Source: a virus
Lineage: Duplodnaviria; Heunggongvirae; Uroviricota; Caudoviricetes
Strand: one strand, 5' to 3'
DNA length: 64,000 nt
IMG/VR virus record: IMGVR_UViG_3300025659_000002
Location: 1-64,000 of that record
Position 1 is the stretch's first letter. Each line of letters begins with the position of its first letter. A model generated the notes under the pieces. It did no database searches. It saw only the letters and a list, made by a program, of their open reading frames with translations, and had not been told where the DNA came from. This document shows, in pieces, positions 12,766-60,436 of the stretch. The translations under genes were made by a program, and so were the position numbers.

Positions 12766-12766
12766 T

Positions 12767-13288: not shown

Positions 13289-13469
13289 TTGCAGCTATAC
13301 CGCCTACAGCTAAAAATAATAAGACGAAGCCAAGCCACAGCGGGGCAGTTATCCACCACCAACTCCATGTAATGACTCCAACTAACTTTAGGACAAGTAA
13401 TACTATAAATAGTATGAATCCGGGATTTTTCATTTTTTCTCCGTTTGTTTTGGTTTTAAATATTTCCAA
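13269..13469 (-). CDS. small membrane protein (66 aa)
   Basis: ORF track; two hydrophobic helices. Confidence 0.4.
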   Translation of the reverse strand: MEIFKTKTNGEKMKNPGFILFIVLLVLKLVGVITWSWWWITAPLWLGFVLLFLAVGGIAAIASWLD

Positions 13470-14503: not shown

Positions 14504-14506
14504 TAT

Positions 14507-15523: not shown

Positions 15524-15537
15524 AAATCTCCATAAAG

Positions 15538-15566
15538 AAAAACGGGGCCGAAACCCCGTTTATATA
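15538..15566 (-). terminator. rho-independent terminator candidate
   Basis: AAACGGGGTTTCGGCCCCGTTT hairpin followed by TTCTTT on the minus strand, between the 15567..16418 stop and the 14507..15523 start. Confidence 0.5.
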
Positions 15567-19278: not shown

Positions 19279-20238
19279 CTATTCAAACAATACTTTTAAG
19301 ACACCATTTCTGCTGGTCATCATTATGTTGGTCGACGGTGTTACCGCTTTCTCCAACGTTTCCAACGATTTCACAAAATTATAAAAGTCTGGATCTGCGC
19401 CATAAGCTTCTGCGTAGATCTTGGTAGCTGTTGCATCAGCTGTACCTTTAATCATCTCAGACTCATTATAAGCCTCAGACATTAGATTTTTTATTTTGTT
19501 ATTTCGTCTTCCAGCTAATTCCTGTCTCTCTTTCTGCCCCTGGGCGCGATATTTCTGAGCAATTCGTGACTGCTCTGAAACCATTCTATCCTGTATCTTT
19601 TTCTTGACTACATTGGTAAAATTTACCCGTTTCAGCTGAACGTCTATAATTTCGATTCCTAATTTACGTTCGGCTAGTTTTGATTGAGCCATTGCCAGGA
19701 TTTTAGCCACAATTTCGTCTCGGATTCCTGGTTGCATGAAGCTGGACTCGGTGCCCTGATCTTCAGTATTTGTATCTGAGGTTTCCTGCGAACGTAACAC
19801 CATCTCCCGATTACTAGACCGTACAATTTGAGACATTACATGCTCAGCAATTATGTCACGTGAGCTACCATCTATTACATCATCAATTCGAGATTGTGCC
19901 TGGTTTTCACGACCACCTACAGCTTTATGATATTCCTGAGGATCACTAATTCTCCATCTGGCAAATACATCAATAAAGACATATTTATTATCTTTTGTAG
20001 GTAATTCTTCGGCATCCCCATCCCATTCCAGAATACGTTTGTCATAAACATGCTTATTCTGAATGTAAGGAATCTTCAGGTGAACCCCTGCGTCAGTAAT
20101 CGCTTCGCCGCGAATTTTACCAAACTGAGTAATCACCACTTGTTCTTTTTCATCGATAACGTATAAACCGCTAAAGAATCCAAAAAGCAGGAACATAAAG
20201 AGGAATATGAAAGCCCCTTTTTTAACTGTCAATTCCAT
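19279..20238 (-). CDS. hflC: HflC-like SPFH/band-7 membrane protein
   Basis: N-terminal TM helix then YVIDEKEQVVITQFGK...; SPFH domain; coiled-coil C-terminus; partner gene directly upstream. Confidence 0.65.
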   Translation of the reverse strand: MELTVKKGAFIFLFMFLLFGFFSGLYVIDEKEQVVITQFGKIRGEAITDAGVHLKIPYIQNKHVYDKRILEWDGDAEELPTKDNKYVFIDVFARWRISDPQEYHKAVGGRENQAQSRIDDVIDGSSRDIIAEHVMSQIVRSSNREMVLRSQETSDTNTEDQGTESSFMQPGIRDEIVAKILAMAQSKLAERKLGIEIIDVQLKRVNFTNVVKKKIQDRMVSEQSRIAQKYRAQGQKERQELAGRRNNKIKNLMSEAYNESEMIKGTADATATKIYAEAYGADPDFYNFVKSLETLEKAVTPSTNIMMTSRNGVLKVLFE

Positions 20239-20240
20239 AA

Positions 20241-21164
20241 CTAGTTGCCTCCCAAATTAAAGTGTGGTAGTGCTGAAATGTTTTCATCAATAAACCAAAC
20301 GTTTTCTGCTGTCGGTAGAATTTTCTGCATTGTTTCAAAATATAAACGGTCCTTAGTTACCTTAGGATTTACTTTATACTCATTATATACTGCAGTAAAC
20401 CAAGCTGTGTTACCTTTAGCTTCGTTAACTCTTTCGATAGCATAACCATTTGCTTCCTCAACCAGTCTTGCCGCTTCACCTTCAGTTTCTGTTACCTGCT
20501 TGGTGTAGTCTTCCCTGGCCTCATTAATAGTAGTCTCCTGCGTTTGCTCAGCAGAATTTACTTCTTTAAAGGCAGCCTGAACTAGCGGAGGTGGATCAAC
20601 AGTTTTCAACTGAACCAACTCTACGATAATGCCGCATTCATATAATGTTAGCATATCCTGCAGGTGAGTCTTGGCCGTATTGGCTATAGCTACACGATCT
20701 TTTTGTAATACTTCATAGAAGGAGCGATCCCCTACCATTAAACGCATTACACTTTCCGAACCGTCTCGCAAGAGCTCTTCAGGGTTTCTAGTGGCAAACA
20801 AATACTGATAAGGATCATTAATCTTATATTGTACAACCCATTGTAGGTACACAATATTTAAATCCCCTGTCAGCATTTCTGATTCTTCGACGAATCCGCT
20901 TTTGTTGTAGTTGGTATTTTTACCAGCAGATACAGTTCTAAATCCAAATTCGGCTTTATATTCATACTCAGTTCTCACTTTGTATGCTTCATCAATCCCG
21001 AACGGAATCTTAAATTGTAGTCCTCCAACAGCGGTAGTACTATTGTACTTCCCCAAACGGAGCACGACTGCTTGTTCATTAGCGTCTAGCGTGTATGCAG
21101 CTGAGAATGTACCCCAGAGCACTACAACGACTATAGCTATTAAAATGCCTAGCGCTTTGTTCAT
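20241..21164 (-). CDS. hflK: HflK-like SPFH/band-7 membrane protein
   Basis: N-terminal TM then YTLDANEQAVVLRLGKY; SPFH domain; E/Q-rich coiled coil. Confidence 0.65.
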   Translation of the reverse strand: MNKALGILIAIVVVVLWGTFSAAYTLDANEQAVVLRLGKYNSTTAVGGLQFKIPFGIDEAYKVRTEYEYKAEFGFRTVSAGKNTNYNKSGFVEESEMLTGDLNIVYLQWVVQYKINDPYQYLFATRNPEELLRDGSESVMRLMVGDRSFYEVLQKDRVAIANTAKTHLQDMLTLYECGIIVELVQLKTVDPPPLVQAAFKEVNSAEQTQETTINEAREDYTKQVTETEGEAARLVEEANGYAIERVNEAKGNTAWFTAVYNEYKVNPKVTKDRLYFETMQKILPTAENVWFIDENISALPHFNLGGN

Positions 21165-24817: not shown

Positions 24818-25537
24818 TTAATTATTTTCTATTAAATATACATGTTTTTCAATGTAATCTTTACCCCTAGCTGAGGCAAACACTGGGATATTCATATCTG
24901 GGTGGTTATTGTCTATACAGTACCCTTGTCGTCTTAAACTAGAGAAGTCATCAAAATTAATTCCTATCTTTTTGGATAGAAGATGTTTTATATTCTCAAC
25001 ACTTCTCATGTGAAGTTCTTTCTGAGAGAAATGCTCTCTTCCTACCATCTGGACAGCGTTGCGTATAGCATCTTGTTGTCTCCAGATATAATAGTTTGTC
25101 ACTTCATCTTTTGCCAAATTAAAAGCTCTAGCATCAAACTGCACTTTTTCGCCAGTTATTGAATAAAAGTTAGTGCTTACGATAGCTGCTGTAATTGATA
25201 CTATTTTCTGTATGGAATTATTGAACCACGACTGTGTGTTATGAGTTTTATAATCCGTTAATAAAAAACTGATCTCATCAGATTGACCATAGCAAAACTT
25301 TGTTGACTGCATATCTTCCATAGAAGCCCTAGCAGTTTCCATCATATTTGCAGAGAATCCGGTAGACCATCCTCTTCCATATAATTTTCTTGTAAGAGTG
25401 TGAAACGCTCTACCGTCTACTCTTATTATTACTGGCATTCTTTTGTGAAGCTTGTATTTATAGGTAGCTTCATAATCTTTCATACGATCACCTAGTGGGG
25501 TTCCGTCTCCCATATTATTTAGTCTCCTCTTTTTCAT
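24818..25537 (-). CDS. Thg1-like 3'-5' nucleotidyltransferase (tRNA-His guanylyltransferase family)
   Basis: PVIIRVDGRAFHTLT (RxDGRxF motif) and YGQSDEISFLL (catalytic SDE); 239 aa. Confidence 0.65.
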   Translation of the reverse strand: MKKRRLNNMGDGTPLGDRMKDYEATYKYKLHKRMPVIIRVDGRAFHTLTRKLYGRGWSTGFSANMMETARASMEDMQSTKFCYGQSDEISFLLTDYKTHNTQSWFNNSIQKIVSITAAIVSTNFYSITGEKVQFDARAFNLAKDEVTNYYIWRQQDAIRNAVQMVGREHFSQKELHMRSVENIKHLLSKKIGINFDDFSSLRRQGYCIDNNHPDMNIPVFASARGKDYIEKHVYLIENN

Positions 25538-25800: not shown

Positions 25801-26424
25801 CTATAGTAATCCTTGTCTTTCTGCGATTGCTATAAGTGTTTCATTTGGTACTTTACGATTTCCTATACTCAATCCTGTGTCTTCAAAGACTATTACGTCG
25901 CCGTCAAGGAATATTAATGGAGTTGTTTTAACATCTAACACTCTGGAACAGAAGCCAGCTCTAAACAAATGACCTCCCTCTAATCCCGATTGTAATAACA
26001 CATCCATGGCGTTTATACCGCGGTAATAACGTGGACCCGACACCTCACATACCGTTGTAACAGTTTCTATATATTCGTCCATGTATCCATGCCAACTACG
26101 CCATTCTTTATCCGCATGAATACGTGCGAAATCGCCTTCTCTGAAAGCTACTCCATGAGGAGCTTCTGCTTTTATTCCATTTTGATTAAATAATCCCTGT
26201 AGTCCTGAATCAAGTTGTACTCCATATATAGTAATATTTTGGTCCTGGGGATTAATTGCTGAATCCATAATTATTCCCAAGTCACCATTAGCTCCTACTG
26301 AGTGGTATTCCTGGTATTTATCGAGACCAAGTTTTCTCGCCATTTCTTCATAGCCACTATATTGTTGCCCAACGTGGGTTATAGACACTAAAGTATTTTT
26401 AGGGATTATATTATAGTCAATCAT
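25801..26424 (-). CDS. paralog family A member 1 (C-terminus ...ERQGLL)
   Basis: Shares its C-terminal RQGLL tail with the next two genes. Confidence 0.5.
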   Translation of the reverse strand: MIDYNIIPKNTLVSITHVGQQYSGYEEMARKLGLDKYQEYHSVGANGDLGIIMDSAINPQDQNITIYGVQLDSGLQGLFNQNGIKAEAPHGVAFREGDFARIHADKEWRSWHGYMDEYIETVTTVCEVSGPRYYRGINAMDVLLQSGLEGGHLFRAGFCSRVLDVKTTPLIFLDGDVIVFEDTGLSIGNRKVPNETLIAIAERQGLL

Positions 26425-26832
26425 TTACAGTAAGCCTTGTCGTTCTAGTACAATTTTAATAGTATCATTATCGATACATTGGCATCCTACCTGGATATCA
26501 TCCTCACTAAAGACTACTTCATGTTCACCTATATACAAGGTTTCCTCTTCTATTTCTTCTGGCTCCACTCTCATAAGAACGAAGAAAGGATATGAATTAC
26601 CGTCTGATAACTCTATTCCTGTGTTAGAGTTTTTGCCTAGATTTGTTATTTTAAGGATATGCTCCTCTTCAACAGCCTCGGTCATCTCATGGATCCAGCT
26701 GTCTCCCCAACCCATTTCACCATCTTCAGCTGTTCTAACAACTTTAATAGATTCTCCTACTTCGAAGTCAGTGGCCTCGCTTAAAGTCATGTAGGCCATA
26801 CTTAGTTTTGCGCTTGTTTCGCTATTGTTCAT
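26425..26832 (-). CDS. paralog family A member 2 (VVRTAEDGEMGWGDSW, ...ERQGLL)
   Basis: Shares the RTAE-GEMGWG and RQGLL motifs. Confidence 0.5.
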   Translation of the reverse strand: MNNSETSAKLSMAYMTLSEATDFEVGESIKVVRTAEDGEMGWGDSWIHEMTEAVEEEHILKITNLGKNSNTGIELSDGNSYPFFVLMRVEPEEIEEETLYIGEHEVVFSEDDIQVGCQCIDNDTIKIVLERQGLL

Positions 26833-26861
26833 TGTTTGTTTCCTTTATTTTAAAAGATTTA

Positions 26862-27500
26862 TTAGTTTCTGGCAATGATGCCTTGTTTTTTGGCAACAGT
26901 TAATAATTGATCGTTGGATATAGTTAGGTTTCCAACCCTTACATACTCTTTGTGGAAGTGCATAATAGATCCATCAAAGACTAGGGCTACGTCTTCCACA
27001 AACTCTAAAACAAACCAAGGTACCCAGTACGGGTTATCTCCCTCTAGGTCTTCAATTTCATAACTATTGTGATCTTTATTAGTAATTCTATATAAATCGC
27101 CAACATCACAATCGTCTAATTCTTCAGGCCACTCCTCTGCCCATCCATATTCATCTTCTTCTGCAGTTCTGACTAATTTTACTAAATTGCCTGTTTTCAG
27201 CTCACACTTTGCGTGGTATTCCTCAAAAATTCCATATAATGAGTTAGTGTTTGTATCTGGTTCTAGTACAAACCATGGATACCATCTAGTTCCGGCTGGT
27301 GTATCTAACATAATTCCCTGTCTAGGGTCTACAGCTGTTACTGTATAAATATGGTCCACTGTACTGTTCATGTCCGTTGTCCAAACACAGCCGTACCCCA
27401 TTTCGCCAGTTTTAGCCGTTCTAATGACTCTTACTTTATCCCTGACTCTAATATTGCAGTTTTCAGTAAATCGTCTATATAATTCTCGTTCGTTAGTCAT
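26862..27500 (-). CDS. paralog family A member 3 (two VRTA-x-GEMGYG/EYGWA repeats)
   Basis: Internal duplication of the family domain; C-terminal KKQGII. Confidence 0.5.
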   Translation of the reverse strand: MTNERELYRRFTENCNIRVRDKVRVIRTAKTGEMGYGCVWTTDMNSTVDHIYTVTAVDPRQGIMLDTPAGTRWYPWFVLEPDTNTNSLYGIFEEYHAKCELKTGNLVKLVRTAEEDEYGWAEEWPEELDDCDVGDLYRITNKDHNSYEIEDLEGDNPYWVPWFVLEFVEDVALVFDGSIMHFHKEYVRVGNLTISNDQLLTVAKKQGIIARN

Positions 27501-30450: not shown

Positions 30451-31272
30451 TTATTTGGTTGTGGTGTCTGCTTTTGATACTAAATCTTCAGCACAAGGTA
30501 CATAGACTGACTCATAAGTTACTGAATCTTGTTTGTTAGCTATGTGAGCTAACCCACGCCAGGCTGCTTCAGGTAAGTTCATACATCCTAGTTTTCTGAT
30601 GGTACCGTTTTCTCTGTATCTTATGTTGTATCCGAAAAGCCTTTGAGGTTTTGGGTCTTGTAGGTGTTTGTAGTTGAACCCTGGATAGAAGAATGTGCTC
30701 TTACCCGGAATTAGGTGAGTCTCGTTCTCATACTCATCGCTGTAGTTTTTTAAGGAGTGTATTCGAAATATTGGCTCTAAATAAGAGTCCAGAGCGCTAT
30801 CGATTATTACACATAGCTCGTCATTTCCAACATTTCCAGGTATTTGAACAATATCACCTTCACAAGGAGTTGTAACTTTTGAGGGGTTGTATAGCTTTCT
30901 TATAAGATCTTTAGAAAACATAATTGATCGAGCATCTGTAGCAGAATATACTATAAATGCACCTTTCAACATTGCAAACACAAAGTCTTTAGAGCTGAAC
31001 AACACTTTAGGTACTAACTCTCTGGGGTAGTATATATTAAAGGCTGAGTGAGATAATTTAGCTCCTGAGCTATATAGTAATAGATGAGGAGTGTCTACAG
31101 ATACGCTGTCTTGTTGCATTACTGTTACAACATTATTATTGATATCAGTACATATTCGTAGATGACCTATTAACTCGTCAATGCTTTGCTGACTAGACAT
31201 AAGATAATAGAGCCTTGACATATAGTCTTCTACTGCTAGATTAGCTATTTGGGGATGGTCTTTGAGATTCAT
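30451..31272 (-). CDS. paralog family C member 1 (PCEGD motif protein, 273 aa)
   Basis: Shares the PCEGD[IV]V and RLFGYN motifs with the next two genes. Confidence 0.5.
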   Translation of the reverse strand: MNLKDHPQIANLAVEDYMSRLYYLMSSQQSIDELIGHLRICTDINNNVVTVMQQDSVSVDTPHLLLYSSGAKLSHSAFNIYYPRELVPKVLFSSKDFVFAMLKGAFIVYSATDARSIMFSKDLIRKLYNPSKVTTPCEGDIVQIPGNVGNDELCVIIDSALDSYLEPIFRIHSLKNYSDEYENETHLIPGKSTFFYPGFNYKHLQDPKPQRLFGYNIRYRENGTIRKLGCMNLPEAAWRGLAHIANKQDSVTYESVYVPCAEDLVSKADTTTK

Positions 31273-31273
31273 G

Positions 31274-31990
31274 TTATCCTTTCATTGCGTTTTTTAGAAG
31301 TAAGTCCCATAATTTGGGGTCAATATCTTGGCAACCTACATTTGATATAGCATTTCTTTCTTTATTGTAAGTTGTACAATTACTACCAAATAGAAATTTG
31401 GGAGTAGGGTCTTGTAAAAACTCACAATCTAATAGGTCTGTGTACTCTATGCCTATTTCATAATCATCTACTATTCTAGTACATCTCATCATTAGTTTAT
31501 TACCCGCTATGCAGGCGTCCAAGATCATAACCATCTCACCAGTTTTAGTTCTTACTACGTCACCTTCACAGGGTTGGTTGGTGTGGTCGCTTCGTCGTAT
31601 TTTTCTAATGAGGTTTTTTGTAAATACCCAGATTTCATCTCCGTGTAGTAATAAGTAGGCTTCTCCTATGTCGGCAACAATATAATCGTTTGTTCCATCC
31701 TTATCATAAATAATGTTAGGTATGAGGTGTTCAGGGTATGTGTAAGTTTTTAGCTTTTTGATGGGCGCGAGGTCCCCTATATGAGTTGAGTGCCAGGTTC
31801 TATAAGGCAGTTGTTGATTCATAGGGAAGCCGGGTTTAGAGAACCACATAAACACAGCACCCTCCTGAGTTCGCTGTATTGAGATGTCTTTAAGTTTAAA
31901 AGTGTTGTATCCGCTCAGAACTTCGTCATATAAATGCAGATAAGCTTGTACTAAGGATAGATGATATTTGTTAATAATATGTTGTAGCAT
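31274..31990 (-). CDS. paralog family C member 2 (238 aa)
   Basis: NQPCEGDVV, FLFGSN. Confidence 0.5.
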   Translation of the reverse strand: MLQHIINKYHLSLVQAYLHLYDEVLSGYNTFKLKDISIQRTQEGAVFMWFSKPGFPMNQQLPYRTWHSTHIGDLAPIKKLKTYTYPEHLIPNIIYDKDGTNDYIVADIGEAYLLLHGDEIWVFTKNLIRKIRRSDHTNQPCEGDVVRTKTGEMVMILDACIAGNKLMMRCTRIVDDYEIGIEYTDLLDCEFLQDPTPKFLFGSNCTTYNKERNAISNVGCQDIDPKLWDLLLKNAMKG

Positions 31991-32011
31991 ATTTATTCCT
32001 TTTTTAATAGT

Positions 32012-32698
32012 TTAAAAATAATCGTTGTTGGCGGATTCAAGTAACACGTCCCACAAGGATTTAGTGATCCTATGACATCCAATTTGAACAATCCGGGACT
32101 GAGAACCCTCATTAGTAAATCTGGCGTGATACCCGAACAATCGAGGTGGTCTTTTGGTTTGTAAAAATTCACAAGAATTTACAAAGCTCATAGATACCTC
32201 ACGATCGTAGCCCCGAGTGGTGGCTATAGAATAATTGAAAAGATTATTATTTTCTTGAAGAGTTACATAATTTATAGTATGTGGGGTATCTTCAAATAAT
32301 ATAACATCACCTTCGCAGGGTACCAGTACTTTAGTAGGAAGGCCTATCTTACGTATCAAGTTTTTGGAAATATATATATAATCGGAAAGTTCATGATGAT
32401 ACACTAAAAAATGATTTCTAAAAGCTGCGTAAATTGCTGTACCACTTTTACTTAACACTGTAGGCTTTAATTCTTCTGGAAACTCATAATGGTGAATCGT
32501 TTTGGTAGGAGGTAAGCCTGTATAGCTACGAGAATAAGCTGTGTATTTTCCTGTAGACAACACATACCCTATCGAAACATCGCCGAATATAGTTCTCTGT
32601 ATAATAACTGGAGTATGTATGTCCCCCATTCTATGTTGCAGGGACATATATTCTTTAGCAAGTTCATATGTTAATTTGTCTGTAATAGTTTTAAGCAT
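32012..32698 (-). CDS. paralog family C member 3 (228 aa)
   Basis: LVPCEGDVI, RLFGYHARF. Confidence 0.5.
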   Translation of the reverse strand: MLKTITDKLTYELAKEYMSLQHRMGDIHTPVIIQRTIFGDVSIGYVLSTGKYTAYSRSYTGLPPTKTIHHYEFPEELKPTVLSKSGTAIYAAFRNHFLVYHHELSDYIYISKNLIRKIGLPTKVLVPCEGDVILFEDTPHTINYVTLQENNNLFNYSIATTRGYDREVSMSFVNSCEFLQTKRPPRLFGYHARFTNEGSQSRIVQIGCHRITKSLWDVLLESANNDYF

Positions 32699-33014: not shown

Positions 33015-34114
33015 AATACGCTTGTAAGATGGCACAGAGTGCACGGGCGTAAGGCCAATTTTTCAGGTGGCTTTCCTGGTATTCTTTTTATGGAAGATGA
33101 GAGTGGCTGAGGGGTAAACTCTTCTTCCGAGGGATGCAACTCCCTTTGCGAGACTTATTAATCCCCGCACCACCTACGTTAAGTAGGAAGCCCTATCTTA
33201 AATTCTTTTCCAAATTGAAGGCTCTAGCCTTGCAACTCCTTCGGATAGACACCCAACGTTTTTATTACGTCTTTGGCCCAGTTTTATGAAGTTTGTACTT
33301 TTCCTGAGAATACAGTTAGTACGGTATATCTTTAAAGGGATCATTTCAATTCCCCTCGTTTCCACGCAGACTTACGTCGTCGTAATACACCAATCACAGC
33401 TCCAGGTATGGAGCCAGGTCTTTCCACTTACATTAACTCTACAATTTCACGACTATCTTAGCTGCCGCCAAGCTTAACCGCTTCCTTATAAATACTGCTG
33501 CAACCCTTGCGAGGCGCAGAGCTCGACGTTATACAGGCCGATATTAGTGATCTTTTATTATAAGCAGCCAGGAATCTAATTGCTTTCATTATAAATGACG
33601 AGAATCGAACTCGTGATCTACGGATTAATATTCCGTTGCTCTACCAACTGAGCTACATTATGGTTTTTCTGTGATTGGGAGGACGCGTTCCCGGTTGTGG
33701 TTACGTAGTTTTCAGCCACATAATGCCACTCGCCCTCGTAAGTCATTAGCCATGACAGCCTCCGATCCTTCATCATAGTAGTTGTCTCTTCTTGACTTAG
33801 AAGCCAATGAAGGCCTCAATATCTTGATCCCGACAAACTATATAATTGATAACCCGCTTGACAGACAGGATATCTTGCGATTACTATACAGACATTTCTG
33901 CCTACCCCTCAGGGGATACGTATCTCGACCTTCACGCCTCGCAGTTAGCCTGGAGTGTTGGACTATTTTTTACAAGATAAATAGAAGTTCGCAGTGTATA
34001 AATGTTTGCACTCCCGAAGGAGAACAACGCAATGCCAGGTATAATTTCACAGACCCGACTGCTTTTAGTCCCATTGCTGGGGTTATCTTTAACTGGATGT
34101 CATACCACCCAGGT
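33015..34114 (-). ncRNA. GC-enriched ORF-poor island, candidate large structured ncRNA with embedded tRNA-like element
   Basis: About 1.1 kb at roughly 45% GC against about 33% background, with no convincing ORF. Bounded by promoter-like motifs at 34146 (oriented toward it) and 32983. Confidence 0.35.
33590..33662 (-). tRNA. degenerate tRNA-like element (anticodon loop ATATTAA; acceptor stem does not pair)
   Basis: CATAATG-TA-GCTCAGTTGGTAGAGC-A-ACGGA-ATATTAA-TCCGT-AGATC-ACGAG-TTCGATT-CTCGT-CATTTAT. Canonical D-, anticodon- and T-arms but unpaired acceptor arms (both sides contain ATAATG as a direct repeat). Confidence 0.35.
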
Positions 34115-34155
34115 GCTAATTAAGGCTAAGCCTTGATTGCGAAATTCTTATACCA

Positions 34156-34190
34156 GAAAATATTGTTTTTTAAAAGACATTGGGTTATAT
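34156..34190 (+). promoter_or_regulatory. sigma70-like promoter candidate (TTGTTT-17-TATATT)
   Basis: ttgttt(tttaaaagacattgggt)tatatt ends 10 nt before the ATG at 34197. Confidence 0.3.
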
Positions 34191-34196
34191 TCAAGT

Positions 34197-35696
34197 ATGG
34201 AAAGAAATTATGAAGTATTTAGAGCTAGGGTAGTTTCAGTAGAGAGTCCTGATGTAAACGCCCTAGATAAAAAAGACATATATATTCAGGCAATAGATGA
34301 GACAGATCCTGAGAAGACGTATTTGGCGTTACCTCCGATATTTATACCAACTTCTGCATTTGGGTCGGGAGTAGTATCAGTGCCTCCTGAAAATCAGGAG
34401 TGTTTGGTGGCCTTGGACAAATGAAATAATGTTGCACAGATTCTTACTTATATCCCCTCAGGACTATCTTCGGCCTTCGGCGGTTTATCTGCAGAAGCTG
34501 TACCAGAGGGGGGAGTGTTATTAAAAATAGGTGGAAAGAACAAAACTAACTTCCTAATGGCTCCAGATGGATTCTTTAGTTGGTTTTCTAACGCCTTCGC
34601 TGAAATAACTTTGGATGGAGCTTATAAGAAACTAAATATTACAACTAAACGATATGAAAGACGAAGCGCAACTAATTTTGTTAGAGACTCATATCATCCT
34701 AAGAAATCTGCAGGAATAGATAAAGGAGCTACATCACATTTAGAAGTATATTCAAAGTTTGATGATACTACTGGGTATCTTGACCATATCTCAGAAAACA
34801 CTGAGACTCACCGCAGTATTCCTTTCAAGCACCAATTCACAGATCAAACTATTATAAAGTCTGGATACATACCTCATGTTAAGAATTTAAAAGGCACGCC
34901 TTATTCCCATTTGTATCAATTAGAGACTAGACAAGCTACTGGAGGTTCTAAACAGAAGAATACCTATACTAAGTTACATCTAGGGTATCAAGGGGCTACA
35001 GATCTATTTGATATAGGAGAAGAACACCCGGCAGGTTCTTTATTTCATTGGGTATTTAAACGAGCAGTAACAAATAATAATAGCTCAATGATAAATAGAT
35101 TTGGGAAATTAGAGTCCGGGAGTTTAGCGGGAGAGTTATATAGACATCAAATATATGATGGAACTTTTGATGCTACAGCCTGGAAAGCTGGGCAAGGTTA
35201 CGATTATACTTTTATCAACACCGGAATTAAACAGCAATATGTAAGTAGTTTTGGCAAGTTAAACACGGGTAGAATATGAGGAAGACACATCCATCAGCTA
35301 GAAACCACAACTAATGGTAAAATGTATACTAAAGAGTTTGGCGGTACAGATATATTAAAGACAACAGTGCAGTCCGGGGATGTTGCAACTCCAGAGTTGA
35401 AATTGACAAAGACGTTAAATAATGAGGCATACACTGTTAAACTGAATCTAGGAGATACTACTCTTACTATAACTTTGGATAGCAGCGGAATAACTCTTGA
35501 CGTGCCTGAAGGTAAAAATGTGTATCTCGGAGGCTCAGAGGGTCAGACGTTAGTTACTAAAGAGTTTGTTACAGAATTATACGCGGGACATACACATGGT
35601 ACAGGAGTGGGACCTTCGTCACCTCCAATAATTCAGCCAAGTATTTATGATCCTTTGGATGAGAATATTTATACTGTGAAGACTTTATCAGAATAA
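34197..35696 (+). CDS. baseplate central spike / VgrG-gp5-like protein (OB-fold N-terminus, beta-helix with HTH motif), containing in-frame TGA
   Basis: ORFs 34137..34424, 34515..35279 and 35322..35696 share one frame and are separated only by TGA at 34422 and 35277. Reading through gives ALDKWNNVAQ and TGRIWGRHIH. N-terminal FRARVVSV...GSGVVSVPPENQECLVAL resembles the gp5/VgrG OB fold; C-terminal YAGHTHGTGVGP is HxH-like. Ends TAA. Confidence 0.55.
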
Positions 35697-36238
35697 TGTT
35701 AAGTGAAACTAATTTAAAGACTGAGCTAATCGCGGAGTTTTATAAGTATTATTATTTAGAAGGCGATAACCGAATAGCTTATACAGTTGATGAAAAAAGC
35801 ATCAGGTTAGGGGAGATTATTAGTGAATATATGAGCGAGGCTGTAGTAGGAGTTACTGGAATCACTACAAACTTTTCTAATGTAGAAATAACTATACCCG
35901 AATGACCAGAGGTTGATGTATCTTTAACTTTTATATCTAACCCATTGGCGGAGATTTCAGGGTCTAGAGGTATATCTGATGAAGATTTACTAGCGGAAGC
36001 TACTACATTAGTACCTACAGCAGTAGGATTTATAACTTATACTCCTGTAGGACCAATAATACCCTTTATAACACCCACATGAGGTAGCAGCAATGCAGAG
36101 TTAATAGCCCAAACTGTGGAGATCTTTTGTGAAGACTTGGCAACTAGTATCCATAACTATGTAAAACAAATAAAGTTTCAAATGACAGGAACGTCGGCAA
36201 GTGGTGTAGTACTTACAGTAGTATGGACTATAACGTAG
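35696..36238 (+). CDS. hypothetical structural-module protein with two in-frame TGA
   Basis: ORF 35696..35905 continues in frame through TGA at 35903 and TGA at about 36080 to TAG at 36236-36238. Readthrough context ITIPEWPEVD, TPTWGSS. ATAATG overlap with the upstream gene. Confidence 0.45.
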
Positions 36239-36245
36239 ATAATAC

Positions 36246-36274
36246 TTGACTAAAAACCTAAGCTTAGTTATATT
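36246..36274 (+). promoter_or_regulatory. sigma70-like promoter candidate (TTGACT-17-TATATT)
   Basis: ttgact + 17 nt + tatatt, 32 nt upstream of the RBS/ATG at 36307. Confidence 0.4.
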
Positions 36275-36306
36275 GAAATGTTAGAAGAAACAAAGTTAGT
36301 GATTAA

Positions 36307-38496
36307 TTGGAGATAATAATGGACAACTTATTTATAAAGAACTCTTTTACTAAAACAGCGTCATACTCAGTGGATATGGACGCAACGAAGTGGGTTAGAA
36401 ATGTAATTACGTATTTTTACGAACAATATCCGTTCGCTCAAAATCAGCCTGCAGTGGTTCAGTGGAAGAAAAAAGATAGTACAAAGGGATATGCGGTAGG
36501 GGTATTAAAGATATCCGGGGCATCCATACCAGTAGTAATCAAAGATTGGAAATTATCTCCTTTAGACATAGTTATGGCAGGTGGAAGAACTTTACCACTT
36601 AATACTGAGGTGTTAAGAACTATGTTAACTTCGCCAGGAGCATTTGTAGGAGTAGCGTCGTCTCCTCCTAAATCAGGACTGGACATGTTCTCACAATTAC
36701 AGTATTCTCCTGATGGGAGTATAAACAATTCAGCTAGCGAGTCTAGTTCACAAGAACGACCTGCTAAAATAGCTTCATTTATTGACAAAATTGAGCATAT
36801 AGACAAAAAAGCCGTTGTTGAAATACTAAATACTGTTAAAAACAACCCAGAAATCCATAATAACTTCAAAAAGACCGGAAGATTAGACGTTTTAGACAAA
36901 CTAGCGTCAAAAACAGAGAGTCAAGAAGAAATCGTGGATTCTTTCATTAGGGACCTTGATATAGATAGACAGTTAGTTATTAAAGACTCTTTAGGTAATC
37001 ACACAGTTAAACAAGCTAATTCTAACATAGATTTTGTATGAGAACTCCCTATTAAGGCTTCAGAAGCTGAAGAATTTGAGATATTAACTGCTTCAAGTTT
37101 CCAAGAAAAGACTGCTGAGTCTGTAGATGCTAATTGCTACAAGATTTGGGACACTGATAGACACCTTATGGTAACATCGGACAAAGATTATCATGATTTT
37201 AGTAGAAATGATGTGAAAACGGCTGAAGCATTTACTTTAGAAGAAGACCAACCACAAGTTGGTGATCTTGGCGTTTGAAAATTTGGAGAATCAGTCTCTG
37301 AACCTTTTGAAGTACTAGGAATGGACAAAGTATCGTCATATTCTTCAAATCTTTATAAACTAGACGGAGGTCCAGGGTATCTTAGCATCAGTAAGAATAA
37401 AGATTGGGTTATTTTAGAGAAATTAGGACAAAAGTCTTCAGAAAATGTAGAAATAGACGGAGATTTTCCTAAAATAGGAGATTTCGGAGCGTGAGTTATG
37501 CCTGATGGCAGTGCCACTAAGCCTTTTGAGATTAGAGAACTATTACAAGACTTAGAAGCTTCTAGCAATAAACAAGTACAAGTAGCAGGTTGGGATGGAT
37601 TGCAGAAGATTGCGTATTACCTGACTGAAATGCCTGTTAAGAGTCTGATGGACTCAGAGAATGGCGGAAAGTTACTACCTAAAGAAGCAAAGTTTGTTAA
37701 ATTAGGCAAAGAATTAAGAAAAGTTTCTGAAGTTAGCGAGGATAATCAAGATACCCCATTAAAAGTTACAGGATGGGCCGGAAGAGAAAAAGTATCTTAT
37801 TACATCGACAACACAACTACTTCTGAAGCAAAATATGTAGAAAAAGAATCTAGTTGGTATTTATCTAAGGACGTGAGCTTCATTAAGCTAGGATCATACT
37901 TACAAAATGAAATACCACATACTGTTAAAGTAAATAAACACACAGTTGGAAAAGACTCTGTAGGCCTTTATTACTTAAAAGGTGCAGAGTTCTCTAAATA
38001 TGCAGAAAACAGCCATGAATTACGTGATTTAAGCCTCTCAGAGGCAGAATGATCATTAATTCATTGTGGAGCAACCAAGACTGATATAAATAAGGCGGCA
38101 ATGTTGCTGAAAGGCACTGAAATGCTAATTGCTTGTCCAATTGAAGCTCCTATACCTCCAAAAGTGTTTATTGATAAAATAGCAGAAACTTATGAAGATA
38201 GTACTAATGACATAGAGATGTTAAAAGTAGACTTAGTAAAAGAGGCTGCGGTTTTATCTGATAAAAGCACTGTAGATGCTGTATTGTCTCTTGGAGCTAT
38301 CAACAAACAGAATATTATAGAATACATAGCTCTATTACCTCAATATGAGATGATTATGAGTGAATTAGCCAAAATGCTGCTTATGACTAGGTTAGGTATG
38401 AGGCATCTTCCGGAGGAAGCCGTAAAGAACGCCATGGATTCAGTAACTAAAATAGTACTGTTGCTTATGGGCGTTAACAAACTGTACTCTAATTAG
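36307..38496 (+). CDS. large structural-module protein (about 729 aa) with four in-frame TGA
   Basis: ORFs 36307..37041, 37498..38052 and 38101..38496 are in one frame. In-frame TGAs at about 37039, 37276, 37492 and 38050 in the contexts NIDFVWELP, GDLGVWKFGE, GDFGAWVMPDG and SEAEWSLIH. Ends TAG at 38494. Strong RBS aattggagataataATG. Confidence 0.55.
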
Positions 38497-38504
38497 GAGA
38501 TACT

Positions 38505-38921
38505 ATGAGATCTTTAGGGGATATGGCGCGACAGATGACTTCATTGCAGAAATTAGTGGTTAGCCAGAATGATCAAGAAGGCGTAGACGAGGTTGTATAT
38601 GAAAAGGCGTACGAGTCTACTGCAGGGGCAGATTCTATAGGGCGAAGTATTTATAACGAAGAAGATGGATCAGTAATGATATTATCTTTGCCAGAAGGAA
38701 CAGAGTTTCCACCACATACTCACGAAAATCCAATAGTAGAGTATGGAATCATATTAAAGGGGAGTATAAGAATTACACAAGAAGGAGTAGATGACGTAAT
38801 CTATTCTTATCAAGACTGCGTAATTCTTAAAGATGAGGTTATGCATTCTGGAGTAGCTTTAGAAGATACGAAGATAATCGCAATAACAATCCCACAAGAG
38901 TTAGGATACCCTGGAGCTTAG
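38505..38921 (+). CDS. cupin-fold protein
   Basis: EFPPHTHENPIVEYGIILKG...VMHSG His/Glu pattern of cupins; RBS aggagatactATG; ends TAG. Confidence 0.45.
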   Translation: MRSLGDMARQMTSLQKLVVSQNDQEGVDEVVYEKAYESTAGADSIGRSIYNEEDGSVMILSLPEGTEFPPHTHENPIVEYGIILKGSIRITQEGVDDVIYSYQDCVILKDEVMHSGVALEDTKIIAITIPQELGYPGA

Positions 38922-38950
38922 TCTCCACATTATAAAATAGGAATATTAGA

Positions 38951-39418
38951 ATGACTGATAAAAAAGGACCAATGAGCTGAGAAGAGTTTTTCGTTAAAAT
39001 CGGAGACAAAGTGGATGAGCATGAAAAGACGTTAGTGACTTTTACTAACGGTAAGTTTAAATCATTAGAAGATAATGTAGATACTTTAAAAGAGACAGTT
39101 GGGGGCATTAAGAATGATATGTCTGAGATTAAAAGAAGACTTCTAGATCCTGAAACCGGCGTAATTCACAAAATGAATGAAGCTACGGTATATGTAGGCA
39201 AATTACAGAAAGAAGAAACGTTAGACCAGATCAAATTAGTCAAAAAAGCTAATACGAACGTTTCACGGTTATTCTGGCTAGTTATGACATTTGTTATAGG
39301 CTCTTTCTTATCTCAGGTCATACCAGACACTTGGTATCCATATTCAGATAAATATACACCAAAAATAGAAAATGTTCAGCCTGAACCAGTGATAATACCT
39401 GATACTATCGCTAATTAA
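38951..39418 (+). CDS. coiled-coil protein with C-terminal TM helix, in-frame TGA near N-terminus
   Basis: ORF track 39011..39418 (GTG start). The frame stays open upstream to ATG 38951/38972 through TGA at 38978-80 (MSWEEFFVKIGD). Hydrophobic LFWLVMTFVIGSFL segment. Confidence 0.4.
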
Positions 39419-39540
39419 TATTTGTATAATACCTAGAATCTAACTATATTAAAGAAAGGGGGTAATTCCAATGATAATACACTGGGGTCTCTCTATAAAA
39501 GACAATTTGAAGAATAAAGTATTAAATCAGTATAAAAATA

Positions 39541-39873
39541 ATGCACAATTCGCCTCTCTCGATTACAAAAGCAGCTGCAATACAGTTAGAAACTAAGAAA
39601 ATTAGCTTAAATCACCCAAAATCCCACATATTAAACATAAAGTTGGCGCCAAATTACGAAACTGAGATGGCACACTTCGATTTTACATATAAAGACATAA
39701 AAGATATTAAAAATATAGTGTATGATGATGACTATGCACACACCATGGATTCGGAAACTGCTATGTATCTTCTTGGCAGTACATTAGATTATAAGGATAA
39801 TAGACTTATATTCGATCATATGGAGCTAGATGGCTTAAATAACTTTAATAATATTGATAATAATAGCAATTAA
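39541..39873 (+). CDS. hypothetical protein (110 aa)
   Basis: ORF track. Confidence 0.4.
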   Translation: MHNSPLSITKAAAIQLETKKISLNHPKSHILNIKLAPNYETEMAHFDFTYKDIKDIKNIVYDDDYAHTMDSETAMYLLGSTLDYKDNRLIFDHMELDGLNNFNNIDNNSN

Positions 39874-39944
39874 TAGCTTTTTAAGGTAAAAAGAAGAGCT
39901 TTCACTCTCCTTTTGTGCAACTGACGTGTTACACAACGTAATTA

Positions 39945-40151
39945 CTAATCGATAGCAGATTCTTCCAAGGATGGAAGGTCTGTATTGCGATTATCATAGG
40001 CTCGTAATCCAAATGCCCCAGCTGCAACACTTAGGACTACTAATCCAGTGTTTTTCACTGCGGGTTTTGAGGCAACGGCTTTAATACCATTAACTGCTTT
40101 ACGAAAATAACCTACTTCTGGGGTCTCAACGACCTTAAGTTCATCAGACAT
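39945..40151 (-). CDS. small protein with C-terminal TM/Ala-Gly-rich helix (68 aa)
   Basis: ORF track. Confidence 0.4.
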   Translation of the reverse strand: MSDELKVVETPEVGYFRKAVNGIKAVASKPAVKNTGLVVLSVAAGAFGLRAYDNRNTDLPSLEESAID

Positions 40152-40440: not shown

Positions 40441-40872
40441 TTATTTTAAAACTTTTTCCCCAGATTTCAACATTTTTTCCCGGTGCTTATGGCAGGCCCA
40501 TACTTCTTTTAAGTCACTTCTCTTAAGAGTCACGGTATTTATAATATCCCAACCATAGCCCTGAATAGCTACTTCAAGCCTAATCCGTAAGATTTTAGGC
40601 CCATAGGTTCCATGTAGGCGCATACGGGTTAAAATTCCTTCGGGAGATAATGTATAGGTATCCGTGCCCCCAGGCCATGCTAAACCTATCTTAATTCTCC
40701 CAAAAGGTGAATATTTCAATTTATCAAGCACTTGTTTTAAAACTGAGTATTTATATATATGACAACCAACCCTTAATCCTTCATGATGCGGTACAATATT
40801 CCTATTAATAACCTCATGATCGAGCGCTCCTATGCGTTCCTTGACTTTCCAAGGCCATTTATCATTCATCAC
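40441..40872 (-). CDS. paralog family D member (VGC...PFG...FKRSDLKEVW family)
   Basis: Conserved LRVGCHIYKYSVL..L.YSPFG..KIG and LKRSDLKEVW blocks shared with four other genes. Confidence 0.5.
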   Translation of the reverse strand: MMNDKWPWKVKERIGALDHEVINRNIVPHHEGLRVGCHIYKYSVLKQVLDKLKYSPFGRIKIGLAWPGGTDTYTLSPEGILTRMRLHGTYGPKILRIRLEVAIQGYGWDIINTVTLKRSDLKEVWACHKHREKMLKSGEKVLK

Positions 40873-41270
40873 AACTTCTCCATAATAGCTACTATACTCC
40901 GGTTATAAGCCCACATGTCCTTTAAAACTTTCCTTTTAAAATAGACGGTGTTTACAGGCCACCAAGAACCTTGCCAGCTGATCCCTTCAACAGCGACCCT
41001 TACAATTTTAGGCCCAAACCGAACATTTAATCGAGCGTTATATAGAACATTTTCGGAAAAATCATAAAGTTTTAAATCAACAACATCTTCTATAGCAAGC
41101 CTAAATTCCCCAAACGGTAAATATCTCATTGAGGAAACTATTTTATCCAAAATACTTATGCCGAAACATAGGCAACCTACCTTTACAACCTCAGTATCTA
41201 CGATAATACCTCTAGTAACCTGCATACTCTTTAACTGTTCATCTGCAGTCCATTTATATTCTTGCATCAT
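40869..41270 (-). CDS. paralog family D member
   Basis: VKVGCLCFGISIL...YLPFG...FKRKVLKDMW. Confidence 0.5.
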   Translation of the reverse strand: MMQEYKWTADEQLKSMQVTRGIIVDTEVVKVGCLCFGISILDKIVSSMRYLPFGEFRLAIEDVVDLKLYDFSENVLYNARLNVRFGPKIVRVAVEGISWQGSWWPVNTVYFKRKVLKDMWAYNRSIVAIMEKL

Positions 41271-41770
41271 AAAATTGTCTCCTTATCTTTTTGTAAATCC
41301 TCTTTGATATTATTAGCGGTTAACGTATCAGCTTTTAGCTGAAGCTTTGCAGCTTCCCGCTCTCTAACCAATAACTCTCTCCATAACTCTCTAAGATCTG
41401 ATTTTTTAAATACAAGATCCTGCAAAACTATGTCGTAGTTTATACCCCAGCCAGTAGTAACAATAATTTTTCTTATTCTTACCTTCCTAAGACCCCAACT
41501 CATTTTTAGAAGTGTGGCACTAACTCCAGGACTCGGGGTTTCACGGGTGCTAAGCCCAAAAATGCCACCACGATCGCGTATATACAAATCACCTCGGCCA
41601 AATGGCCACATAACTTTTCTTAGGGCGAGTTCTAATACAGACTTGTGAAAATTATTACAGCCTATATTTACAAGCATACCGTGTTTTTCAGACTCCCATA
41701 ACCTTATACCTAGCTTATGGGGTAGGCGGCTATTATAGTATTCTGCGTGTCTCATATTAACGCCTTCCAT
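41267..41770 (-). CDS. paralog family D member
   Basis: VNIGCNNFHKSVL...WPFG...FKKSDLRELW. Confidence 0.5.
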   Translation of the reverse strand: MEGVNMRHAEYYNSRLPHKLGIRLWESEKHGMLVNIGCNNFHKSVLELALRKVMWPFGRGDLYIRDRGGIFGLSTRETPSPGVSATLLKMSWGLRKVRIRKIIVTTGWGINYDIVLQDLVFKKSDLRELWRELLVREREAAKLQLKADTLTANNIKEDLQKDKETIL

Positions 41771-45995: not shown

Positions 45996-46421
45996 TTATA
46001 GAGGCCAAGTACTCTCGTGAGTTTCTATAGCTTTTTTCATTTCTTTAAAAACTTTTCTTTTAAAATGAAAGTTTTCTTGAGTAACCCAACTAGGGTATGT
46101 GTGCCATTGGCACTTAGTTTGTAATAATATGTATACATTTACAAACCCATAACGAACTTTAAGCCTAGTTTCTCTTTCAGGTATAGACACATATCGTTTT
46201 TTATAGAAGTAATGCCCATTGCAGTCTCTCTTTATGAATACATTAAACCACCCAAAAGGGTATCTTCTTAGTTTGCTAATAACCTTCATTAGCACAGATT
46301 TATTAAATCTTCTACAACCTATGGCTACTCCGTCAGCATAAAGATTAATTCGACGTGAGTCTTCCATTAATCCCCGATCTACAGCTTCCCATTTATCTGA
46401 TATCAAGTATACAAAATTCAT
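45996..46421 (-). CDS. paralog family D member (5th copy, detached)
   Basis: VAIGCRRFNKSVL...RYPFG...FKRKVFKEMKKA. Confidence 0.5.
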   Translation of the reverse strand: MNFVYLISDKWEAVDRGLMEDSRRINLYADGVAIGCRRFNKSVLMKVISKLRRYPFGWFNVFIKRDCNGHYFYKKRYVSIPERETRLKVRYGFVNVYILLQTKCQWHTYPSWVTQENFHFKRKVFKEMKKAIETHESTWPL

Positions 46422-57238: not shown

Positions 57239-57260
57239 ATGTGCTCTCCATTGTTAGGTG

Positions 57261-57332
57261 CAGGGACGGCAGGACTCGAACCCGCATTGCCGGTTTTGGA
57301 GACCGGAGCTCTACCAATTGAACTACGCCCCT
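57261..57332 (-). tRNA. tRNA-Trp (anticodon CCA)
   Basis: AGGGGCG-TA-GTTCAATTGGTAGAGC-T-CCGGT-CTCCAAA-ACCGG-CAAT-GCGGG-TTCGAGT-CCTGC-CGTCCCT-G; all stems pair; U11-G24 in the D stem. Confidence 0.7.
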
Positions 57333-60419: not shown

Positions 60420-60436
60420 AGAGTGGGAAATAATTA

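Follow-up and report, generated by a model that had tools for sequence, protein, structure and literature searches.

Genes of the plus-strand module

The window (the 64,000-nucleotide stretch of DNA analysed here) belongs to an environmental phage, known from metagenome assemblies, whose genome appears to measure ~212 kb; the longest public contig carrying this phage's genes measures 211,738 bp. At 34197-39418, on the plus strand, lie four genes (A, B, C and D) that contain nine in-frame TGA codons, together with one gene without any. The module as such has no match in INPHARED or PHROGs. Directly upstream, the divergent intergenic region carries on the minus strand a GOLLD-like large structured RNA (33301-33738; Rfam RF02032, a covariance model of the conserved 3' domain, model positions 1-416 of 416, E-value 1.8e-32), which scores 124.8 bits, under the gathering score of 150. 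A tRNA-like element (33590-33661; 58.7 bits, anticodon loop AUAUUAA) is embedded in this RNA, as is seen in some GOLLD RNAs. GOLLD RNAs are associated with phages and with tRNA genes (PMC12286853), as is the case at this locus.

Gene A (34197-35696, 499 aa) has TGAs at 34422-34424 (codon 76) and 35277-35279 (codon 361). Its homologues are uninterrupted proteins of 550-670 aa, and a public database entry (P0147) corresponds to a 240-aa standard-code fragment of it. The protein ends in a C-terminal region with an HTHGTG motif. An AlphaFold model of the homologue P0148 (pLDDT 79) gave high-probability Foldseek matches, with weak E-values, to phi92 gp138, the PhiTE baseplate and the VgrG spikes of type VI secretion systems (T6SS). 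Judging from these predicted folds, gene A probably encodes the baseplate central spike (cell-puncturing protein). The preliminary description of this DNA proposed recoding of late genes in a structural module; the word structural is reasonable, but its support is no more than moderate.

The ATG of gene B (35696-36238, 180 aa) overlaps the TAA of gene A. TGAs occur at 35903-35905 (codon 70) and 36080-36082 (codon 129), and we found no homologue or family match for the product. In a relative (L007), the same slot is occupied by an 84-aa gene and a gene with a CIS_spike_tip domain (PF19267).

Gene C (36319-38496, 725 aa) encodes a conserved multi-domain protein and has four TGAs, at 37039, 37276, 37492 and 38050 (codons 241, 320, 392 and 578). 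Its start had been placed at a TTG (36307), but the ATG at 36319 is the likelier one, with a GGAG ~10 nt upstream. The protein contains repeated small beta domains that bear a GD[LF]G[VA]W motif, and the two repeats in which TGA was said to follow GD[LF]G[VA] are indeed present. There are 25 homologues, down to an E-value of 2e-34; the closest are 697-730 aa long, versus fragments of at most 254 aa when gene C is called in code 11. The homologous genes in the relatives L007, L008 and L009 have 8-11 TGG codons and no TGA. A predicted model of the homologue P0002 (pLDDT 75.5) had no match in the PDB.

A cupin-domain protein (38505-38921, 138 aa; PF07883 Cupin_2, E-value 3.8e-7) is encoded next, with no TGA. 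Gene D (38951-39418, 155 aa), which follows it, encodes a coiled coil and a C-terminal transmembrane helix and has a TGA at 38978-38980. This was reported to follow codon 2, which is right if translation starts at the ATG at 38972 (codon 3); from the ATG at 38951 it is codon 10. We found no Pfam match and no homologue for gene D, and its match to PHROG 937 ('hemolysin') is weak (E-value 9.5e-4); the product is possibly XhlA-like and lysis-associated. The TGA of gene D is the least secure of the nine: homologues are lacking, and translation might in truth begin at a GTG, codon 21. For the three TGAs of genes B and D, the support is frame continuity alone.

All nine TGAs are located as first reported, the quoted junction peptides read as given, and every junction keeps the frame. 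Off-frame, TAA and TAG together occur at ~8% per codon in these genes, and none occurs in frame, in agreement with the argument that chance pseudogenisation is not involved. At that rate, the 725-codon frame of gene C, with four TGAs and no TAA or TAG, is not random.

A second block of interrupted genes

The preliminary description confined recoding to this module. Recoding is present there, but mid-gene TGAs also occur in plus-strand genes from 58380 on. The second plus-strand block occupies 58380-63764 of the window and runs past it to at least 73.6 kb, where genes for the ribosomal protein bS21 and the large terminase are found. From 58380 to at least ~72 kb it holds ~26 further in-frame TGAs. 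Inside the window, TGAs interrupt the ORFs at 58380-60419 (TGAs at 60114 and 60159), 60653-61195 (60731) and 61195-61917 (61225). They are absent from a SNF2 helicase gene (61919-63319) and from the ORF at 63312-63764, as they are from the cupin gene. Pfam matches in this block are SNF2, GpA_ATPase and Ribosomal_S21.

The large terminase gene, just beyond the window, has TGAs at codons 208, 238 and 384, and the same three are present in four assemblies (L001, L005, L006 and L012). In public gene calls (up to 40 contigs) the protein is split into pieces of 207, 134 and 118 aa, and on a few public contigs called in code 4 it is a single protein of 512 aa. In-frame TGAs (1-9 each, 38 in total) are also present at nine further terminase loci from this family in IMG/VR, and 32 of the 38 align to conserved Trp positions (190, 208, 238, 265, 268, 384 and 427). 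Recoding thus recurs patchily among the relatives.

TGA encodes tryptophan on the plus strand

Treating TGA as a sense codon raises coding density in the first module from 0.82 to 0.98. ORF length increases too, and the second plus-strand block behaves in the same way (0.80 to 0.99). The minus-strand blocks barely change (0.87 in both codes for one, 0.79 to 0.81 for the other), and a control in which TAG was made sense gave no gain in coding density. Across 22 plus-strand genes we counted 36 in-frame TGAs (one of which lies upstream of the true start of gene A) versus 45 TGG codons, and the TGAs are distributed evenly over gene length (KS p = 0.22). TGG alone makes up 0.70% of plus-strand codons and TGG plus TGA 1.26%, with Trp at 1.68% on the minus strand.

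Nine of the TGA sites can be aligned with homologues (four in gene C, two in gene A and three in the terminase), and eight of these fall in columns of Trp or other aromatic residues. The three terminase columns have W in 29/31, 31/31 and 29/31 homologues. In gene C, the columns at codons 241, 320, 392 and 578 contain W11/Y2/F1/I1, W3/F3/L2/I1/V1 with 5 gaps, W5/F9/Y1 and W15/15, respectively, so that at four sites overall W is found in at least 29/31 or in 15/15 homologues. The column at codon 361 of gene A is aromatic (Y13, W7 and F1 of 31). That at codon 76 of the same gene is uninformative, being a variable loop (G11, N6, S3, D3 and others, 31 homologues). Standard-code homologues are full-length single proteins that use TGG only, not short ones that stop at each TGA.

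TGA is therefore a sense codon in the plus-strand genes and its meaning is Trp: coding density, uninterrupted homologues and Trp/aromatic columns all agree on the reassignment that had been proposed. The plus-strand genes (tail-spike, packaging and others) are intact only when TGA is read in this way.

TGA terminates minus-strand genes

That the true stops are TAA or TAG is correct for the plus-strand genes only. Of the 84 minus-strand genes, 60 stop at TAA, 14 at TGA and 10 at TAG, and since about one in six ends at TGA, the codon has two uses in one genome. One example is a PP2C phosphatase gene (7757-8536, minus strand, 259 aa; PF13672, E-value 5e-13) with a genuine TGA stop at 7757-7759, for which the gene call on the source scaffold has the same length; an Rnl1-like ligase gene (13430-14503, minus strand) is a second. 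In 14,147 minus-strand codons there are 237 TGG versus 16 in-frame TGAs. Fourteen of the 16 lie within the last 14 codons, and the TGAs cluster at the ORF ends (KS p = 4.6e-9). The standard code fits the minus-strand genes, and the split in the reading of TGA tracks strand and module structure.

The minus strand encodes RNA repair enzymes, a kinase and phosphatase pair, SPFH proteins and many small genes. We presume that these are early or middle genes; the labels late and early as used here are drawn from gene content and strand. From the minus-strand TGA stops alone, we infer that the host uses the standard code.

Decoding machinery and a proposed switch

A search for tRNA-Sup(UCA), trpS and release-factor genes, suggested with the preliminary description, yielded none in 82.7 kb (the window plus 10 kb on each side) of the ~212-kb genome. 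ARAGORN, at default and relaxed settings, called 20 tRNA genes in the 82.7 kb, none with a UCA anticodon, and an Rfam scan of the window gave none either. None of the ~50 proteins scanned matched a Pfam family for a release factor or tryptophanyl-tRNA synthetase (TrpRS), and the 82.7 kb contained no TrpRS/RF1 'code change operon'. The sole Trp-related translation component found is a tRNA-Trp with a CCA anticodon (57260-57332, minus strand), just upstream of the second recoded block. Its sequence has A1-U72, G73 and G24, and with G24 it lacks the G24A D-arm change of the Hirsh UGA suppressor (E. coli tRNA-Trp).

As a UCA tRNA, a release factor and TrpRS are all missing from the 82.7 kb, the mechanism of the switch has to be deduced, and for the host code, the timing and the UGA-decoding steps we follow published models. 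In a standard-code host, UGA would terminate translation early in infection, and the plus-strand mRNAs would yield truncated products only. A UGA-decoding activity would appear later, allowing synthesis of full-length virion, packaging and lysis proteins, so that recoding may act as a timing lock on late genes. The activity would most likely come from a UCA-anticodon tRNA of the phage that the host TrpRS charges and that is encoded in the ~60% of the genome outside the 82.7 kb. After the switch, translation of early genes that end at TGA would run on only briefly (a median of 7 codons before the next TAA or TAG). We consider a dual reading of TGA with a stage-specific switch to Trp in late genes to be very probably the correct explanation. 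Points against it are the decoding genes missing from the 82.7 kb, the variable loop at codon 76 of gene A and the plus-strand genes that contain no TGA.

The strongest competitor, which we nevertheless judge improbable, is that late-gene TGAs are read as Trp without a dedicated UCA suppressor, with RF2 impaired by the phage and the abundant phage tRNA-Trp(CCA) reading UGA as a near-cognate codon, or with C34 of that tRNA modified or edited. It accords with the lack of a tRNA(UCA) throughout the 82.7 kb, tRNA islands included, with the position of tRNA-Trp(CCA) beside the second recoded block, and with a gene set that includes bS21 and enzymes of RNA modification and repair: a SpoU methylase, a Thg1-like protein, PNKP and two RNA ligases. 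Sup-TCA tRNAs were, moreover, found in just 35% (bioRxiv 10.1101/2021.08.26.457843) or 15% (PMC11210395) of code-4 phages in published surveys. On the other hand, the 82.7 kb covers only ~40% of the genome, and ~61% of recoded jumbo phages do carry suppressor tRNAs (PMC13037316). The tRNA-Trp has no known suppressor-type change, we identified no protein that targets release factors, and a CCA anticodon would have to read at least 35 UGAs efficiently, for which there is no known precedent. It is similarly doubtful that this phage, and perhaps all of its family of large environmental phages, switches TGA to Trp in this manner by disabling RF2, altering tRNA-Trp(CCA) or acting on the ribosome via bS21. 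If it did, this would bear on how the majority of code-4 phages, in which no suppressor is detectable, manage recoding.

Less probable still is a code-4 host whose code the phage shares, as Mycoplasma and Spiroplasma phages do, with TGA meaning Trp in all genes at all times and no stage switch. Such a host would explain the alignment of TGAs with Trp and the missing suppressor machinery in 82.7 kb, and such code sharing is the case for most code-4 phages in INPHARED (PMC11210395). TGA should then be scattered through all genes, but Trp on the minus strand is written as TGG, the 16 TGAs there are placed like stops, and the phage's own tRNA-Trp has a CCA anticodon rather than UCA.

A reading of TGA as glycine (code 25) or selenocysteine has next to no probability. 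Gly is the commonest residue at codon 76 of gene A (11/31) and is absent from the eight Trp or aromatic columns, so code 25, against which the Trp reading was also to be compared, is rejected. Cys occurs in none of the nine alignable columns, Rfam scans of the window detected no SECIS family, and minus-strand genes stop at TGA. Pseudogenes or assembly and sequencing errors, favoured by nothing beyond the presence of the stop codons, can be set aside: TGA is the sole codon to break these genes, with no TAA or TAG and no loss of frame, four assemblies share the same terminase TGAs, the phage's proteins occur on 35-40 contigs, and TGAs occupy conserved Trp positions across several related lineages.

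Comparison with known recoded phages

Gut phages with standard-code hosts are known to recode TGA to Trp, mainly in their structural and lysis genes (Borges et al., bioRxiv 10.1101/2021.08.26.457843), and the phage described here is a further clean case of such code-4 late-gene recoding. In those phages a tRNA-Sup(UCA), sometimes with RF1 and TrpRS, is frequent and not universal. As in the Agate and Jade code-4 gut phages of that study, the TGAs align to Trp and are concentrated in genes for structure, packaging and lysis, with the remaining genes readable in the standard code. In both cases there are close relatives with the standard code, which makes recoding patchy inside a clade, and a suppressor tRNA often goes undetected in the Agate and Jade clades as well. 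Unlike them, our phage appears to have a genome of ~212 kb and 14 of its 84 non-recoded genes demonstrably end at TGA; it is unrelated to them in sequence.

The crAss-like and Lak phages that reassign TAG to Gln (code 15; PMC9523058) recode a stop in late genes within a standard-code host, the logic proposed here as well. They differ in codon and amino acid, often encode Sup-CTA tRNAs and sometimes RF2, and have been validated by metaproteomics, whereas our phage is known from sequence alone. TGA also means Trp in Mycoplasma and Spiroplasma phages (PMC11210395), but there genome-wide and through the host code, whereas here the minus-strand TGAs are stops. In-frame TGAs also occur in phages that infect Absconditabacteria and Gracilibacteria and use code 25; these are read as Gly under the host's code, unlike the TGAs described here, which fall in Trp/aromatic columns.

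Extent of recoding in the plus-strand genes

The preliminary description had placed nine in-frame TGA codons in a structural module at 34197-39418. All lie where it put them, the junction peptides are correct as quoted, and the GD[LF]G[VA]-TGA motif is present twice, as claimed. With TGA read as Trp, gene A (34197-35696, +) carries TGAs at 34422 and 35277, gene B (35696-36238, +) at 35903 and 36080, gene C (36319-38496, +) at 37039, 37276, 37492 and 38050, and gene D (38951-39418, +) at 38978; the cupin-domain gene lying between genes C and D (38505-38921, +) is free of TGA. The more probable start of gene C is the ATG at 36319, preceded by GGAG, and not the proposed TTG (36307). The gene D TGA, said to follow codon 2, is codon 10 counted from the ATG at 38951 and codon 3 from the ATG at 38972. 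Of all nine sites this one is the weakest, since translation could in fact begin at a GTG further downstream. Among plus-strand genes, TAA and TAG together have an off-frame frequency of ~8% per codon; therefore, the long frames free of both and interrupted by TGA alone are not accidental, as had been argued.

ORFs were rebuilt with TGA as a sense codon on the window plus ~10 kb on either side (82.7 kb in all; positions past the window ends are given in extended coordinates). The source scaffold (ENA ERZ23491642 scaffold_55, 138,951 bp) was identified by exact protein match, and coding density was computed per block by simple ORF tiling. In the module at 34197-39418, density rose from 0.82 under the standard code (code 11) to 0.98 with TGA as sense, and the longest ORF grew from 254 to 729 codons. 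The predicted gain is thus present, but it is not restricted to this module, since density in a second plus-strand block (58380-73647, extended coordinates) rose from 0.80 to 0.99. The minus-strand blocks gave 0.87 under both readings (block A) and 0.79 and 0.81 (block B), and a control with TAG as sense yielded essentially zero gain. Recoding of the flagged module is real, but it reaches well past 34197-39418.

In the 22 plus-strand genes (6,411 codons) there are 45 TGG codons and 36 in-frame TGAs, a count that takes in one upstream of the true start of gene A, and the TGAs are evenly distributed along genes (KS against uniform, p = 0.22). On the minus strand (84 genes, 14,147 codons), 237 TGGs stand against only 16 in-frame TGAs. 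Of the 16, 14 fall in the final 14 codons of the frame bounded by TAA or TAG (KS p = 4.6e-9); TGA on this strand therefore acts simply as a stop. These genes end in TAA (60), TGA (14) or TAG (10), and the earlier statement limiting true stops to TAA and TAG is correct for the plus-strand genes but not for them. Recoding tracks the division of the genome into strands and modules.

Amino acid at the TGA positions

A search with gene C, with X placed at each of its four TGAs, returned 25 homologues, the closest of which are 697-730 aa and span the whole protein. The aligned columns hold W11, Y2, F1 and I1 at codon 241; W3, F3, L2, I1, V1 and five gaps at codon 320; W5, F9 and Y1 at codon 392; and W in 15 of 15 at codon 578. 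Trp occupies three of the four positions in each of the three closest homologues (P0001-P0003), and in two of these the remaining one as well. Homologous genes checked at the DNA level in three loci (L007, L008 and L009) have 8-11 TGG codons and no in-frame TGA. Standard-code relatives of gene C are single long proteins, not the strings of short proteins that the preliminary description had set against its own reading.

The large terminase (PF05876; extended coordinates 70531-72069), encoded just outside the window, has three TGA columns with Trp in 29, 31 and 29 of 31 homologues. In gene A (31 homologues), the column at codon 361 is aromatic (Y13, W7, F1). The suggested alignment check thus favors Trp or an aromatic residue at eight of nine alignable sites, the exception being gene A codon 76, which lies in an uninformative variable loop (G11, N6, S3, D3, others). 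Gly appears in none of those eight columns and Cys in none of the nine, which excludes both TGA as Gly (code 25) and selenocysteine. Genes B and D returned no homologues, so frame continuity is the sole basis for reading their three TGAs as sense.

Gene content of the two strands

A DNA search of INPHARED phages with 34000-40000 found no match, and genes A, B and D have no Pfam match. Among five module proteins searched against PHROGs, the single hit was a weak match of gene D, a coiled-coil and transmembrane protein, to an XhlA-type 'hemolysin'. A chimeric query (genes A, B and D plus two flanking proteins) gave one weak match; the word filter was probably diluted by the length of the query. 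The model of a gene A homologue (pLDDT 79, pTM 0.69) had high-probability Foldseek matches, with weak E-values, to the cell-puncturing spikes phi92 gp138, PhiTE baseplate and T6SS VgrG. Together with a C-terminal HTHGTG motif and the PF19267 'CIS_spike_tip' gene between the gene A and gene C orthologues in the relative L007, these make 'spike-like', as gene A had been called, a reasonable predicted label. Gene C is conserved beside gene A in relatives; the model of its homologue (pLDDT 75.5, pTM only 0.33) had no meaningful PDB match by Foldseek.

The second plus-strand block encodes a series of paralogues together with an SNF2 helicase, a DUF5662 protein, a homologue of ribosomal protein bS21 and the terminase. 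From gene content we infer that the plus-strand blocks are late. A simple 9-mer comparison found no shared promoter-like motif upstream of plus-strand genes. The bS21 gene (PF01165; contig L001 17009-17236, extended 70319-70546, +) lies directly upstream of the terminase gene and carries its own in-frame TGA at codon 50; bS21 occupies the same position in L011, a relative with the standard code. Seven plus-strand proteins (61195-63764 and, on L001, extended 65052-67729), the SNF2 helicase among them, have a common N-terminal motif, MDKAxYIFEK, with variants including MDKALHVFNKYA and MDKATIVFEKLA. Similar motifs are also internal in two neighboring ORFs, and the motif might mark virion-packaged proteins for targeting or processing.

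Minus-strand genes encode exonuclease and HD proteins and many tRNAs, and a dense RNA/tRNA-repair set sits beside the tRNA islands (4867-16418 and 24818-25537, -). The set comprises RlaP, PNKP (kinase and HAD phosphatase), two RNA ligases (Rnl2-type and Rnl1-type), an AAA ATPase, a Thg1-like tRNA-His guanylyltransferase, and a kinase-like protein (weak, sub-threshold Pkinase match) adjoining a PP2C phosphatase; it suggests a counter to host anticodon nucleases. Also on this strand are two adjacent SPFH/Band 7 (HflK/HflC-like) membrane proteins (19279-21164, -) and tandem paralogue sets (30451-32698; 25801-27500; 40441-41770 with 45996-46421; -), for example three consecutive proteins of ~230-270 aa with a common NLIRK...PCEGD[IV]V motif. 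Just left of the window (L002 11216-16421, extended about -6,000 to -1,000), eight more tRNA genes are interleaved with a SpoU-family RNA methylase gene and a NAD salvage/synthesis cluster encoding NAPRTase, NAD synthase, NUDIX, cytidylyltransferase-family (PF01467) and nucleoside deoxyribosyltransferase-like proteins.

The divergent intergenic region directly 5' of the recoded module is filled by a sequence matching the whole length of the GOLLD RNA model RF02032 (33301-33738, -; E 1.8e-32; 124.8 bits, under the gathering score of 150). GOLLD RNAs occur in phages near tRNA islands, sometimes with tRNAs in the linker (PMC12286853). Inside the GOLLD-like RNA described here is a tRNA-like element (33590-33661, -; 58.7 bits against the tRNA model), uncalled by ARAGORN, whose acceptor stem has 6 bp.

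Search for UGA-decoding machinery

The proposed search for tRNA-Sup(TCA), trpS and release-factor genes came back empty: neither ARAGORN on the 82.7 kb (default and relaxed settings) nor Rfam on the 64-kb window (gathering and E-value modes) found a UCA-anticodon tRNA, and no release factor or TrpRS was found among ~50 scanned proteins. The scans gave 20 ordinary tRNAs and three tRNA-like genes with abnormal anticodon loops. The canonical tRNA-Trp(CCA) at 57260-57332 has G24 and hence is not a Hirsh-type suppressor, judged against E. coli tRNA-Trp. The three tRNA-like genes were rejected as UGA decoders, none having a UCA anticodon: the element embedded in the GOLLD-like RNA has the loop AUAUUAA, the gene at 3602-3674 (-) a 6-nt loop (GUCCGC) and that at 8566-8633 (-) a 4-nt loop (GAUA). 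The latter two score above the Rfam tRNA threshold and lack a normal 7-nt anticodon loop; in 3602-3674 the loop sits on an extended stem, and the acceptor stem has two mismatches.

IMG/VR contigs from the same phage are all <10 kb, cover the terminase end and have no tRNAs, and scans of metagenome and genome contig collections for the rest of the genome gave no match. Relatives of the SpoU methylase in IMG/VR (38 loci with tRNA islands, from other phages) have no UCA tRNA. An unrelated large phage with a SpoU homologue, L119 (IMGVR_UViG_3300031566_005149), encodes an amber-suppressor tRNA (CTA anticodon) at 14458-14532 and may be TAG-recoded. The Trp-derived anticodon arm of a guessed suppressor, CCGGTCTTCAAAACCGG, matched ten stretches on nine IMG/VR contigs, four of which have UCA tRNAs; none of these contigs has protein similarity to the phage or to its terminase-family loci.

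Sup-TCA tRNAs are found in only 15-35% of code-4 (TGA as Trp) phages (PMC11210395; bioRxiv 10.1101/2021.08.26.457843) and suppressor tRNAs in ~61% of recoded jumbo phages (PMC13037316). The lack of a UGA-decoding tRNA in 39% of a roughly 212-kb genome is therefore weak evidence. A TGA-to-Trp switch without any dedicated suppressor tRNA, although consistent with the absence of a UCA tRNA from the 82.7 kb, is unlikely. The switch most likely follows the model of Borges et al. On a host with the standard code, early genes would be translated normally, and a Trp-charged UGA reader from the phage would then unlock the late genes. After the switch, TGA-terminated early genes would be lengthened by a median of 7 codons. 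The next in-frame TAA or TAG comes slightly sooner after TGA stops (median 7 codons) than after other stops (11.5); with p only 0.048, we do not argue that backup stops are under selection.

Recurrence in relatives and public records

The terminase TGAs are identical across four assemblies (L001, L005, L006 and L012). In the public protein collection this terminase is recorded as 207-, 134- and 118-aa pieces on 35-40 contigs, the longest contig with such fragments being 211,738 bp, and as a 512-aa protein only where the gene caller applied code 4; gene A is on record as a 240-aa standard-code fragment. Virion and packaging genes of this widespread phage, like those of nine or more related loci in IMG/VR, are therefore wrongly annotated wherever code 4 is not used for the right genes.

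Across the terminase family (78 loci in IMG/VR), in-frame TGAs (1-9) occur in nine lineages other than the present phage, and two of these are almost without TGG (9 TGAs versus 0 or 1 TGG). In the nine, 32 of 38 TGAs align to conserved Trp positions. The remaining loci use the standard code, including relatives at 54-58% terminase identity, so recoding is recurrent and patchy within the family.

Comparison with known recoded phages

The finding is solid, helps annotation and offers a test case, but would not surprise a specialist. Late-gene TGA-to-Trp recoding is best documented in gut phages (bioRxiv 10.1101/2021.08.26.457843) and is extended here to a family of large phages from metagenome assemblies that is unrelated to them in sequence. 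The phage shows the tested defining traits of TGA-to-Trp, late-gene-biased recoded phages, machinery excepted; code-change machinery is often absent in the known class and was likewise not found in the examined part of this genome. The patchiness within the terminase family is the pattern reported for gut phage clades (bioRxiv 10.1101/2021.08.26.457843). In contrast to described code-4 phages, the present phage is unrelated to them in sequence (INPHARED, PHROGs), comes from metagenome assemblies and belongs to a large-phage family with repeated recoding. It differs further in that 14 other genes in its genome demonstrably end at TGA. With that codon also demonstrably Trp at ~35 positions, this is an unusually clean case of dual use, well suited to asking how recoding operates without an obvious suppressor tRNA and a good test case for recoding as a timer of late gene expression.
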